Assembly (NCBI GenBank): GCA_965206595.1
Contig: OZ242214.1
Location: 5,344,001 to 5,408,000, forward strand
Length of the DNA stretch: 64,000 bases
Direction of reading: 5' to 3'
From: Candidatus Latescibacterota bacterium
GTDB taxonomy: Bacteria; Latescibacterota; UBA2968; UBA8231
Shown here one piece after another: positions 2,281-46,866 of the stretch (positions are counted from its first letter, which is position 1; the number at the start of each line of letters is the position of its first letter). Both the position numbers and the translations under genes were made by a program. The notes under the pieces were generated by a model. That model was given only the letters and a program-made list of their open reading frames with translations. It did no database searches and had not been told where the DNA came from.

Positions 2281-3382
2281 TCATGGGGTTGGCCATTCCG
2301 GGCGGGAGCCCCGTCGCGTCAAACCGAGCAGCACCCGCTCTATCCAGAGTGGATTCCTGGGATGCAAGTATTCGCACAAGTCCCACCAGTACCGCACCTG
2401 TCGCGCATGTCGAACTATATCGAACATCAGGCGCAGTTCGAAATCGAACTCCGGATTGACACCGCGCAGGGTTCCGTAGGCGTTGCGAAGGCCTTCGACA
2501 TAGTGCGTCTCGCGGTTACTTCCCGGGGGACAGGATGAACCTCGCGCCGTGTGCGTGGCGATGCTGCCCTCGGCCTTTTTCAGGTCGGTAATTGCGGGTC
2601 CGAGCCGAGCCGCCTGAAAGTCGAAGAGGCCGCTGATCCGCACGCGCCTGCCGTTTTCCTCAACGAGCAGATTGTGCAAGCCCACCTCTACCTTCAGCAG
2701 CACCTCATCGCCCTTCTCCCCTCTGAACTCTGCCGCGCTCAGACATCGCCGGAGCCGGCGCTCAAACCCGGGAACCTGCGCTTCCAGTTCCCTCCTGAGG
2801 GTTGCGTTCCCCAGGAGAGTCTCTTCGACACTTTGAGGACCCTCCGGGAGGGCCGGCAGGCCCGCTGGCGGAGTCGGCTCGTGGATCCGGCCCAGCATCA
2901 CCCCCAGCTGCTCCGCCAGGGACAGACGCAGTTCGTGACTGGTCTGCTCGAAGAAGATTTCGCCCTGGCGGCCTTCCAGTCTGTTCGAGATCAGGTAGGG
3001 GTGTGGGAGCAGAGCGCCGCTCTCATCCAGTTCGCACTTCTCCGACACCGGTACTTCATCGGCACGTTGCAGAGCGCGGATCGCCCGGTGTTCCTGACGC
3101 AGGGACCATCCAGGCAACGAGCGGGTCTGGATCTTGATGATGAAGGATTCGCCCGTCGATGTACTGCTTGAGACGGGCCCAGTTGGTGAAGCCATGCTCG
3201 CGGGCGATGACGGACTGAGCGTTGCGCAGAGGGAAGGCCACCGGATCCTGGGGGACCGGCCAGCGCTGTCGGTGTACGCGCAGGTTGGCTTGCGCATTAC
3301 CTGCTGCCACGGCATCGCGCAGCTCTCGAGCCCGGAGCTTGAGTTGATCTATGTCGGGACGGGTGGGAAGGGGGGTATACAT
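2281..3382 (-). pseudogene. Small N-terminal helical domain fused to an APH/phosphotransferase-like domain; frameshift near 3152-3154
   Basis: MYTPLPTRPDIDQLKLRAREL...AQSVIAREHGFTNWARLK in one frame with GAAAGGAG RBS; IIKI...PYLISNRLEG...LGRIH...HNLLV...GLFDFQAA in the +1 frame. Confidence 0.7.
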
Positions 3383-3385
3383 GGG

Positions 3386-3592
3386 CGATCTCCTTTCCAA
3401 GAATGGCCTGGTGTCCGCAGAACAGGCAGAAAGAAGAATCGTTTGCAGTGAGGCTGGTTCGCAGGTGGGACTCGGTCCCTTGCCGCGGACTGGAGGCTCC
3501 CTATGAGCAACTAGGGGCAGGACAAGGCAGAAGAGTCAGGACGGCAAGCTCTCCGAGACCTGTTCGGTCGGTGCCGAGCCCACGCCCTCACT
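3386..3592 (-). ncRNA. Candidate structured cis-regulatory leader RNA
   Basis: Nested complementary segments 3447-53/3586-92, 3465-75/3574-83, 3479-85/3542-48; RBS-sequestering hairpin 3389-97/3429-37. Confidence 0.55.
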
Positions 3593-3661
3593 CCAGGAGC
3601 AGCGGTGCCTTGCATTCACCTTGTCGCCAGGCGTCCCGCGGCAATTCGTTGAACCCGGGTG

Positions 3662-4792
3662 TCAACCGCTCGCCACCAGCTGCCCCGCCCTCACCGTCGC
3701 CAGCGGCTCCCAGCAGCCCCCCGGCCGCTCGACGTCCAGGGTGTCGCGCAGCCGGCCCTCCTCGTTCCACTGCAGCAGCGCGAGGTCGGCGCAGGCCCCG
3801 GCCGCCAGGGTGCCGGCCTCCCCCTTCAGCCCGAGCAGCTCGGCAGGCCGCGCCGTTGCCCGCGCCAGGACCTCGGCTTCCGGCATGCCGGCGGCGATGA
3901 ACTTCGACATCGTTCTCGGCAGGTCGTGCTGCGGGTCGCTGCCGACGTGGCGGCTGTACTGATCGGTGGAAACGGTGTCGGGGTAGAACCCCTCGGCGAT
4001 GGCGGGCTCGACGTGGGCGAAGCTGAAGGACCTCATGCCGTGGCAGCCGTCGAACAGCACCCCCCGCTCCTTCGCCTCCCATACCGCCGATCGAACCTTG
4101 CCGCCGGCGATGATGTTGTCCTCGAGGAAGCTGAAGGTGTAGGTGAGGAGGTCGCCGGCCCGCAGGCAGGGCAGCTGCTCCTCGAGGGGGTAGTCGCTTT
4201 TGAACCGCGGTCCGTAGAGAACGGGGCGGCCGCTGCGCCCGGCCGCCTCGATTCCCCGGCGCAGGATCTCTCGCGGGTCGTGGGAGACCGCGGGGTTGTA
4301 CATGGTGTTGAAGGCGATGCCCCAGATCTCCTCCCCGGCCGCGAGGATGGTGCCGGCGCAGAGATCGACGTCGGCGTTGTCGAGGTGCTCGAAACAGTGG
4401 CCCTCCTGCGACTCGCCGTGTTTCGACAGGTGCAGGGCGAGCCGCACCCGCGTGCGGCAGCCGCCGATCACCTCGTCCCGGTAGGCCGGCCAGTTGAGGG
4501 CCCCGGCGTCCCCCTGCGACATGCAGGTCGTGACCCCGCGCGGCAGGAAGTGCTCGTCCGGGTCGATGCCGTAGCGCGACCCGCCCCGGGCCGGGTGGGC
4601 GTGCATGTCGACGAGGCCGGGCAGGAGCAGGGCATCCGGGTAGTCGAGGGTTTGCGCGGCCGTTCCCGTGACCTCGGGACCGGAGGCGGCGATGCGGTCG
4701 CCGCGCACGGCGACGGCGCCCGGGCCGTCGAGGCCGGTGTCGGCGCAGAAGACGCGGCCGGCCGTAATCAGCAGATCGTAGTCGGTCGTCAT
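3662..4792 (-). CDS. Amidohydrolase / dihydroorotase-like metallohydrolase
   Basis: PGLVDMHAH, GVTT, DAG, ATARPAELLG...GTLAAGACADL motifs; ATGA overlap with upstream gene. Confidence 0.85.
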   Translation of the reverse strand: MTTDYDLLITAGRVFCADTGLDGPGAVAVRGDRIAASGPEVTGTAAQTLDYPDALLLPGLVDMHAHPARGGSRYGIDPDEHFLPRGVTTCMSQGDAGALNWPAYRDEVIGGCRTRVRLALHLSKHGESQEGHCFEHLDNADVDLCAGTILAAGEEIWGIAFNTMYNPAVSHDPREILRRGIEAAGRSGRPVLYGPRFKSDYPLEEQLPCLRAGDLLTYTFSFLEDNIIAGGKVRSAVWEAKERGVLFDGCHGMRSFSFAHVEPAIAEGFYPDTVSTDQYSRHVGSDPQHDLPRTMSKFIAAGMPEAEVLARATARPAELLGLKGEAGTLAAGACADLALLQWNEEGRLRDTLDVERPGGCWEPLATVRAGQLVASG

Positions 4793-5856
4793 GGAGATCG
4801 CGGGTCCTGTCCGGCGTATTCGTTGTTGACCGCCTGCAGGAGCGCCCGCATGTAGGCGATGGAATAGGCGGTGCCGGCACGGCTGCCGCCGATGATCTCG
4901 GGGATGTGGTCGGGGATCACCGCCCCGTCGTACTCCACCGCCCGCAACGCCTGCATCACCCGGTGCATGTCCTGGTAGCCGTCGTCCATCAGGGTCTCGA
5001 CGCAGAGCTCGGGCATCGGGTTGGAGACGTTGCGGAAGTGGACCTTGAACAGCTTGTCGCGGCTGCCGAAGTAATGGATCGCCTCTTCGACGCTGCCGCC
5101 CATCCCCTGCTTGCCCCCTTCGAGCCAGCAACCGACGCAGAGGCAGACGCCGATGTTGGGGCTGTCGGCCATGTCGATGGCCCGCTTGTACCCGGCGAAG
5201 TTGCCGAACAGGCAGCGGGGCACGCCGCCGAGGGCGTAGACCGGGGGGTCGTCGGGGTGGATGCCGACGTAGACCCCGGCCTCCTCGGCCGCGGGTGCGA
5301 GCCTGCGGATCAGGTAGTCGTAGTTGTCCCACAGCTCTTCCTCGGTGTAGCGGCGGCCGTGGGTCAACTCCCCCGGGAAGGTCCGGTCCCCCCAGCGCCC
5401 GACGGCGTTGGCGACGTCGATGGTGCGGGCGGTCATGCCGCCGCGGCGGGTGGTTTGGCCGGTGCTCCAGATGCCGTTGCCCATGTGGGCGTAGGTGTGA
5501 TAGTGGATGCCGGCCTCGCCGAGGTTGCCGATGAAGCGGATCAGCTCCTCGACCTTGGCGTCCCGCCCCGGCAGGTTCAGGGTGATTTCAGGGACGTTGT
5601 GCACCCCGTGGTGGGCGATGCGGTAGATCTGCAGGCCGAACCCGGCGAAGCGGGCCTTGAGCCGCCTGTAGGTCTCGACCGTGTGCAGCGCCGGGTCGCG
5701 GATGCCGACCATCAGCCATTCGATGCCGAGCTGCTGGTGAAACCGCAGGTCTTCGTCGCTGGCGTCGTGGGAAGCCTGCCCGGCGACCTGGATTCCCGGT
5801 GTCGTCGAGAAGAAGCCGGGAACGGCGCGCAACGGGTAGCGTTTGTCGGTGCTCAT
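4789..5856 (-). CDS. Mannonate dehydratase (UxuA) family protein
   Basis: EELWDNY..., IHPDDPP, VHFRNV, IPDHIP motifs. Confidence 0.85.
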   Translation of the reverse strand: MSTDKRYPLRAVPGFFSTTPGIQVAGQASHDASDEDLRFHQQLGIEWLMVGIRDPALHTVETYRRLKARFAGFGLQIYRIAHHGVHNVPEITLNLPGRDAKVEELIRFIGNLGEAGIHYHTYAHMGNGIWSTGQTTRRGGMTARTIDVANAVGRWGDRTFPGELTHGRRYTEEELWDNYDYLIRRLAPAAEEAGVYVGIHPDDPPVYALGGVPRCLFGNFAGYKRAIDMADSPNIGVCLCVGCWLEGGKQGMGGSVEEAIHYFGSRDKLFKVHFRNVSNPMPELCVETLMDDGYQDMHRVMQALRAVEYDGAVIPDHIPEIIGGSRAGTAYSIAYMRALLQAVNNEYAGQDPRSP

Positions 5857-46790: not shown

Positions 46791-46866
46791 TGGTGGAGCT
46801 GAGGGGAATCGAACCCCTGACCTCCTGAATGCCATTCAGGCGCTCTCCCAACTGAGCTACAGCCCC
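46791..46866 (-). tRNA. tRNA-Ala(GGC)
   Basis: GGGGCTGTAGCTCAGTTGGGAGAGCG-CCTGA-ATGGCAT-TCAGG...GGTTCGATTCC...CTCCACCA; G3:U70 pair, encoded CCA. Confidence 0.97.

Follow-up and report, generated by a model that had tools for sequence, protein, structure and literature searches.

A widespread family of structured leader RNAs, probable translational OFF-switches, precedes genes that share a small N-terminal protein module

We describe here a leader RNA encoded in a 64,000 nucleotide (nt) stretch of the genome of a Candidatus Latescibacterota bacterium (GenBank assembly GCA_965206595.1, contig OZ242214.1, positions 5,344,001 to 5,408,000), which is called the window below and is numbered from its first letter. 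The element lies on the minus strand at 3508..3380, and it very probably belongs to an uncatalogued family of roughly 125-nt structured 5' leader RNAs that act as translational OFF-switches; this level of confidence refers to the best explanation as a whole, that is, to the leader family and the OFF-switch reading together. The 3' end of the leader is the start codon of the gene it precedes, and the Shine-Dalgarno (SD) sequence of that gene sits inside the conserved fold. With this finding, Rfam 15 is seen to lack a widespread structured leader RNA that is well supported and that tracks a single small N-terminal protein module, whatever domain comes after it.

Results and Discussion

The fold of the leader and its support by covariation

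The leader folds in three parts, a 5' domain (helices P0, P1 and P2), a variable linker and a 3' hairpin (P4 outside and P3 inside), and in total it has six helices and two pseudoknots. In the window these parts are as follows:

3508-3505/3499-3496, minus strand: P0, GCUC paired with GAGC; its loop carries the 5' strand of P1
3503-3500/3465-3462, minus strand: P1, UAGG paired with CCUG; encloses the junction strand and P2
3490-3485/3418-3413, minus strand: second pseudoknot, junction strand GUCCGC paired with GCGGAC of the P3 loop
3479-3475/3471-3467, minus strand: P2 hairpin, GGGAC, loop CGA, GUCCC
3437..3461, minus strand: linker from the 5' domain to the 3' hairpin, variable in length and sequence, with insertions of up to about 40 nt in some copies
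3428..3437, minus strand: 5' strand of P4, the anti-SD UCUUCUUUC(U), paired with 3397-3389
3427-3423/3410-3406 (3406..3427), minus strand: P3 hairpin, GCCUG paired with CAGGC; its loop holds GCGGAC (3418-3413)
3389..3397, minus strand: 3' strand of P4, the SD region GAAAGGAGA, paired with UCUUCUUUC at 3437-3429, with one G-U pair

Because P0 encloses the 5' strand of P1, the 5' end of the RNA is an H-type pseudoknot of these two helices.

The evidence for this fold comes from comparison of copies of the leader as follows: RNAalifold gave three helices, P1 among them, for the first alignment (A1, 18 sequences), and the loop/anti-loop pairing was then added; 96.5% of the A1 cells are paired with that pairing included, compared to 32-47% when partners are slid. 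Covariance model R1 was built from A1 with P1, P2 and P3 only. Covariation was counted on a later alignment, A4, which holds 85 model matches that represent 84 distinct copies. In A4 97.7% of cells are paired, compared to 31-45% with slid partners, and two-sided changes occur at 15 of 19 pairs, figures that favour P1, P2 and P3 in that the alignment was fitted to the model of those three helices. None of 500 shuffles reached the observed values, but the copies are related and hence not independent, so these shuffle controls overstate significance.

Among the three modelled helices, P1 has two-sided changes at all four of its pairs (the outer pair is CG in 28 copies, AU in 22, GC in 17 and UA in 3), P2 is paired in 99.7% of cells with two-sided changes at 4/4 counted pairs, and P3 is paired in 98.1% of cells with both sides changed at four of five pairs (one pair is UA in 48 copies, CG in 27 and UG in 6). 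P0, the second pseudoknot and P4 are absent from the search model, yet they too are backed by compensated variants. P0 was first spotted by reading the alignment and then counted: a fully complementary upstream 4-mer is present in 76 of the 84 copies, and where the 3' strand differs from GAGC its complement is present in 21 of 25 copies, compared to 28% in mismatched pairings (e.g., GCUU/AAGC, GCGC/GCGC, GCAC/GUGC and GCGU/ACGC). The second pseudoknot forms all six pairs in 78/84 copies, and three of the six change on both sides; seven copies have changes matched on both strands, and in nine of the 12 copies whose 5' strand deviates, none of the six pairs is lost (variants include GUCCAC/GUGGAC, GCCCGC/GCGGGC, GCUCGC/GCGAGC, GCCUGC/GCAGGC, GGCAGC/GCUGCC and GUCUGC/GCAGAC). 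The P4 duplex has a mean energy of -14.7 kcal/mol with its own partner, compared to -11.4 kcal/mol with partners from other copies, and among 19 copies with unusual strands the own partner ranks first or second of 84 in nine; UGUUAAG/CUUAACA and CUUAAUCU/AGAUUAGG are examples. G-U pairs are frequent (UG in 6 copies and GU in 2 at one P3 pair) and are tolerated on the gene's strand only, which fits an RNA of that strand and not DNA. Conservation is 90% or higher in 38 of the 133 consensus columns. The leader thus has a conserved structured aptamer, supported by covariation, which is one of the features that mark riboswitches as a kind.

The initial annotation of this DNA, made from the window sequence, had proposed an SD-sequestering hairpin with an inner stem, a pseudoknot between its loop and an upstream strand, and a distal multi-stem domain, and it had recommended a covariation check on aligned homologous leaders; the copies aligned in A4 do covary (values above). 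All of its quoted pairings are literally present (AGUGAGG 3592-3586 with CCUCACU 3453-3447, UCUUCUUUC with GAAAGGAGA, GCCUG with CAGGC and GCGGAC with GUCCGC). The SD-sequestering hairpin and its inner stem covary across the 84 distinct copies, and this hairpin alone (3385-3440) folds with -19.5 kcal/mol (z -2.84; 2 of 200 shuffles were as good); the loop/anti-loop pairing is borne out by the counts and compensatory changes given above. The distal domain, with partners at 3542-3592, did not hold up: the region that contains it folds with a z of only -0.76 (below), no similarity to it is found in other copies, its partners overlap or precede the -35/-10 promoter pattern (CTTGCC lies inside the stem strand 3542-48), and its stems 3465-75/3574-83 and 3479-85/3542-48 could form only in competition with P2 and P1, which covary. 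Helices P0 and P1 were absent from that annotation.

The promoter-like pattern upstream of P0

The only sequence that the copies have in common upstream of P0 is a promoter-like pattern, in which CTTGAC or CTTGCC is followed after 16-19 nt by TAnnnT and this -10 hexamer starts 25-18 nt before P1; 31 of 83 copies have a strict form of it, TTG[ACT][CA]N-N16-19-TANNNT. It is downstream of the -10 position that the conserved blocks are found. The corresponding window positions are as follows:

3543..3548, minus strand: -35-like hexamer CTTGCC, at the same distance from P1 as in other copies; a pattern match only
3520..3525, minus strand: -10 position, with the poor match TTGTCC in the window; placed by aligned upstream regions

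The fixed distance of the pattern from the leader places the probable transcription start at or just before P0, so the RNA is proposed to begin at P0, a few bases past a sigma-70-like promoter, and to run to the start codon. The next gene upstream in the window (3662-5332, minus strand) is a 556 amino acid (aa) open reading frame (ORF) that ends 280 nt before the leader-linked start codon; neither Pfam nor NCBIfam has a match to its last 345 residues at an E-value of 0.1 or better.

Distribution of the leader and its absence from catalogues

When window positions 2281-3700 were compared by blastn with 41 related genomes, the stretch 3509..3379 was matched at several places elsewhere (five in genome G021 and three in G022, with a 33-nt core that is 97% identical), and each of these leaders lies directly before an ORF that begins with the same N-terminal module. 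Of 76 genomes of the family, 49 contain matches to model R1, a single genome carrying as many as 16 copies, and the model also matches 59 of 151 genomes sampled from the phylum; its E-values reach 1e-29 across many genomes. Three of its matches are in the window's own genome, where blastn with the leader gave the self match only, so that the other two copies needed the covariance model. A 24-base pattern from the 5' block was found in the genomes of 57 species, and the model matches all 57, one of them (locus L101) in the 5' domain only. The records of these species name Gemmatimonadota, Latescibacterota, Poribacteria, Planctomycetota, Verrucomicrobiota and Actinomycetota (five or six phyla), and named carriers include Cerasicoccus frondis (Verrucomicrobiota) and Kutzneria, Actinoplanes, Plantactinospora and Actinopolymorpha (Actinomycetota).

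The leader belongs to no Rfam 15 family at the gathering threshold. The only Rfam 15 match in the whole window is a tRNA gene (46794-46866, minus strand), a search of region 3200-3800 with E-values up to 10 returned only two chance snoRNA rows on the other strand, and seven further copies from other genomes gave 0 matches. The statement of the initial annotation that it recognized no known riboswitch consensus therefore agrees with the Rfam 15 check of the window and those seven copies. A full-text literature search on riboswitches, structured RNAs, ankyrin genes and Latescibacter, with supplements outside its scope, found no description of the leader, and a term search of the main texts of PMC11109978 and PMC8632094, whose supplements may hold motifs, found none of the carrier taxa. 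The leader sequence family is new, and its tie to a protein module instead of a pathway is unusual.

Leaders precede genes for a common N-terminal module

A profile built from 41 modules finds the module (E-value 1e-3 or better) within 420 nt of the leader in 77 of the 84 distinct leaders, and in 58 of these 77 matches profile position 1 is the predicted start codon. In five distant genomes 14 of 15 leaders directly precede a module, and 14 of 17 module genes have a leader (15 of 17 if a weaker match is counted). Three of the four module genes in the window's genome have a canonical leader. The fourth (L122, G000:C1:1407350-1410568, at about 480-1520) encodes the module and ankyrin repeats in a 648-aa frame that is split after codon 12 by an inserted gene, read from its sequence as an IS630-type transposase; before the insertion stands a divergent leader, whose P0 is GCACC/GGUGC and which matches the model weakly (10.1 bits, E-value 0.048).

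Leader-linked genes are quite often interrupted. A stop or frameshift in the first 100 codons is present in 11 of 84 (12 with the deletion in the window, below), for example in L046, L060, L077, L095, L102, L136, L137 and L140, which suggests either fast turnover of the family or errors in metagenome assembly. In two unrelated copies, from different genomes and with different C-terminal domains (L006:1637-1650 and L063:1734-1750), codon 4 or 5 is an in-frame TAA that immediately precedes the conserved LP of a long and otherwise intact module ORF; a pseudogene, a sequencing error or some form of regulation might account for it.

The module is about 78 aa long and has four helices in an AlphaFold2 model (predicted local distance difference test score 79.8, predicted template modelling score 0.63). 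The initial annotation had given the window gene the motif LPxRPxxxQLKxxA...AQxVIAREHGFxxWxxLK, which is present, and had described its product as a small helical domain; the four helices agree with the latter, but the gene itself is the remnant of a larger one (below). Identity to the window's module is 26-47% outside its two orthologues. A basic residue invariably occupies positions 15 and 19, R61 is present in 90%, and the mean net charge is +3.4; such basic residues are compatible with nucleic-acid binding but are not diagnostic of it.

What follows the module varies. Among the C-terminal domains of 40 proteins there are 22 ankyrin, three sigma-54 AAA+, three FliG_C and two FliM domains, one each of sulfotransferase, APH and bifunctional nuclease, and seven with no Pfam family. 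A profile search found the module in 1034 longer proteins among 8000 scored, and the best 120 of these 1034 are for the most part ankyrin proteins with a length near 465 aa, beside some leucine-rich repeat (LRR) proteins and one PF20066 protein (P0013, 166 aa). The statement in the initial annotation that the module occurs on unrelated proteins, ankyrin-repeat and glyoxalase proteins included, was therefore correct, as both partners (the latter as Glyoxalase_8) were seen. In four proteins (L080, L070, L094 and L063) the module takes the place where sigma-54 activators usually have an N-terminal sensor or receiver domain; module, AAA+ domain and lid make up 338-343 aa, and Pfam finds no DNA-binding domain in them. 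This placement hints that the module is a regulatory input domain.

Does the module resemble any known domain? The window's module aligns with positions 4-52 of the 143 positions of PF20066 (Glyoxalase_8) with 15.2 bits, below the cutoff of 23.7 bits, and an E-value of 0.023. The L120 module aligns to profile positions 4-59, and P0013 is among the module's relatives; on the other hand, the glyoxalase part is missing from the module, whose partners are mostly ankyrin-repeat proteins. An NCBIfam search with the module found nothing, the best hit of a sequence profile search of the PDB was not significant (E-value 0.032, a chain named JUBO2), Foldseek against the PDB gave none at an E-value of 0.001 or better, VIA-align against 48,161 chains gave a best Z of 4.3 (not significant), and the ESM Atlas returned only clusters of 'hypothetical protein'. 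These searches neither establish nor exclude an RNA-binding fold.

Proposed translational control and the possible effector

As the SD lies in a fold that is conserved and covaries, ribosomes should be kept from binding once the RNA is folded, and with the SD closed in this way we read the leader as a translational OFF-switch that is held by an effector. P4 pairs a pyrimidine tract with the SD and would so close the ribosome-binding site, and the P3 loop, docked on the junction strand, ties this hairpin to the 5' domain; such near-invariance of junction bases and helices suggests a surface for recognition. The comparison of sequences shows the conserved structure, the paired SD, the location immediately before the start codon and the close linkage to module genes, and from these we infer the repression of translation, the existence of an effector and the transcription start.

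Besides the two limits on the A4 statistics given above, several observations weigh against this reading. The 226-nt region 3375-3600 folds no better than its shuffles (-83.2 compared to a mean of -79.3 kcal/mol, z -0.76, 46/200 as good), and the element itself (3377-3512) folds as a single sequence about as well as shuffles (z -0.67, in a folding model that does not include pseudoknots). A strict promoter and terminator scan of window positions 3350-3720 found none, and the window copy has no consensus promoter. The P4-P3 hairpin looks stable alone, which leaves its opening unexplained, and by reading of the alignment no conserved alternative (anti-anti-SD) pairing was seen in the copies with unusual anti-SD strands. 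The linkage also has exceptions: the seven of 84 leaders without a module stand before decayed genes (L046, L077, L136 and L132), small FliG_C-like genes (L141 and L142) and an ankyrin fragment (L027), and some weaker module relatives, such as two module genes in genome G040, have no leader.

One candidate for an ON state was considered, in which AGGGAG, an SD-like sequence in the 5' domain, would compete for pairing with the anti-SD. It was rejected because L104 and L084, in which the anti-SD is changed, show no matching change in the 5' domain (a reading of the alignment that was not counted).

If the leader is an OFF-switch, what holds it? Our tentative first choice is a small molecule or ion, which would make the leader an orphan riboswitch. 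The core of the RNA is far more conserved than the module, so a small-molecule effector fits at least as well as the module does, and the riboswitch-like architecture with the SD in the aptamer also favours it by analogy. In the SAM-II, preQ1-II and NAD+-II classes, which are translational OFF riboswitches, the SD is part of a pseudoknotted aptamer, and the leader resembles them in being a compact element of the 5' untranslated region with a pseudoknot, near-invariant junction bases and the SD in the fold before the start codon. It differs from them in its larger size, its two pseudoknots and six helices and the lack of an Rfam match, and in that it is tied to an N-terminal module rather than a pathway and can reach 16 copies in one genome. 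Gene neighbours gave no clue to a ligand, as the upstream genes of 42 loci are in unrelated families. If small-molecule sensing is true, the leader would be a new orphan riboswitch class whose signal is tied to a large ankyrin/LRR 'eukaryote-like' protein family. That some other factor, temperature or a constitutive structure takes the place of a small molecule or the module is about as probable as the module itself as effector (below).

A second explanation, which we regard as possible but doubtful, is that the module is a new RNA-binding domain that binds the leader of its own mRNA and those of its paralogues and represses their translation. Promoter, leader and module would then be an autogenous cassette, grafted in at least five phyla onto varied domains (ankyrin, LRR, sigma-54 AAA+, FliG/FliM-like, kinase, sulfotransferase and nuclease), that sets the total level of module proteins. 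The initial annotation had proposed such a portable cassette, and the part of that proposal that stands is the recurrence of promoter, leader and module on unrelated C-terminal domains, while the distal RNA domain it included does not. In favour of the module as effector, it is the only thing common to the regulated genes (77 of the 84, and 14 of 15 in the distant genomes), whose C-terminal domains are of at least seven kinds, and its basic positions 15 and 19, R61 and net charge (above) are of the expected sort. Two leaders with the compensated pair GCUCGC/GCGAGC (L141:148-283 and L142:145-280, in G021 and G007) precede a FliG_C-like protein of about 96 aa that has no module; their genomes are rich in module genes (16 and 8 leader copies, respectively), so control in trans would be possible. 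Among autogenous leaders of ribosomal proteins, double pseudoknots that span the ribosome-binding site are known, and this too is counted in its favour. In the S4 alpha-operon and S15 rpsO leaders, which are autogenous, a pseudoknot covers the ribosome-binding site, and like them the present leader is a pseudoknotted RNA that spans this site upstream of the gene for one protein family; its partner, in contrast, is not a ribosomal protein but a 78-aa module on unrelated domains, which is only a putative binder.

Several facts argue against the module as effector. The RNA core is nearly invariant across phyla, while module identity is only 26-47%; sequence and fold searches with the module gave no significant relative, RNA-binding or other; and, unlike the case of the ribosomal-protein leaders, neither blastn nor the covariance model turned up a cellular RNA in the window's genome for this leader to mimic. 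The single leader of G040 looks intact but stands before an ankyrin fragment that has no module, and the two weaker module genes there have no leader. Finally, the linkage could come from the adjacency of the leader and the 5' end of the module, which would be duplicated together while C-terminal domains are swapped, so linkage is not decisive on the effector. If module binding is true, the system would be a portable autoregulatory cassette with a new RNA-binding domain. Cultured hosts are among the carriers (Kutzneria, Actinoplanes, Plantactinospora, Actinopolymorpha and Cerasicoccus frondis), which makes the small-molecule and the module readings directly testable.

It is improbable that the leader has no effector at all and is an RNA thermometer, a constitutive translational attenuator or a stability element that gives a low and perhaps temperature-dependent output. 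The ROSE and fourU thermometers are simple hairpins in which the SD is paired with a U-rich strand, and the SD of the leader is similarly paired with a U-rich pyrimidine tract that includes G-U pairs; the stability of the hairpin without a ligand and, by reading of the alignment, the lack of a conserved alternative ON-state pairing are also as expected. A simple attenuator, however, needs only P4, and the two-pseudoknot 5' domain with its roughly 38 near-invariant positions, an extra domain compared to ROSE and fourU, would be left unexplained; the thermometer families in Rfam do not match the leader. That the element is an ordinary untranslated region with chance complementarity in G+C-rich DNA, or a set of conserved DNA signals (promoter/operator), is scarcely credible, as the shuffle-like folding of the whole region and the promoter-like pattern directly upstream, which would agree with it, are outweighed by compensatory changes in six helices across 84 copies, by the tolerance of G-U pairs on the gene's strand only, by conserved blocks that lie downstream of the -10 position and by recovery of the motif with E-values down to 1e-29 in many genomes.

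The window gene is a broken module-APH kinase

The gene that follows the leader in the window occupies two reading frames, a 108-aa frame from the ATG at 3382-3380 to 3056 and a second frame, 2281-3315, that carries an APH domain (both on the minus strand). Its parts are as follows:

3155..3382, minus strand: start codon (3382-3380) and residues 1-76, the N-terminal module with its four helices; the G020 orthologue has 71% identity over the same residues
3056..3154, minus strand: end of the 108-aa ORF, out of frame beyond the deletion junction at about 3155
2281..3154, minus strand: APH-type phosphotransferase domain in the other frame, its first part lost; 68% identical to residues 142-426 of the G020 orthologue

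The second frame matches PF01636 with an E-value of 5e-14 (53.1 bits, above the family's cutoff, profile positions 21-206); the match begins at profile position 21 and in a frame that differs from that of the start codon, so it is not a complete in-frame domain. The orthologue in G020 is 430 aa long and its residues 1-76 and 142-426 align to the two frames, which indicates that about 65 codons and the reading frame were lost at about 3155. Contigs of three sequencing runs from three other studies have 0-3 differences per 900 bases and 214 extra letters exactly at 3155, and a contig from the sample that is the probable source shows no difference from the window; the deletion of about 215 nt is thus real and strain-specific, and an intact module-APH kinase gene exists in sister strains.

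The orthologues in G020 and G004 (L002:922-1059 and L003:914-1051) keep the P4-P3 hairpin with its GCGGAC loop, and in both the 5' domain (P0-P2) is replaced by other sequence. In L002 the replacement contains a TATAAT-like box about 45 nt before the anti-SD. These natural 'half' leaders could help test the role of the 5' domain.

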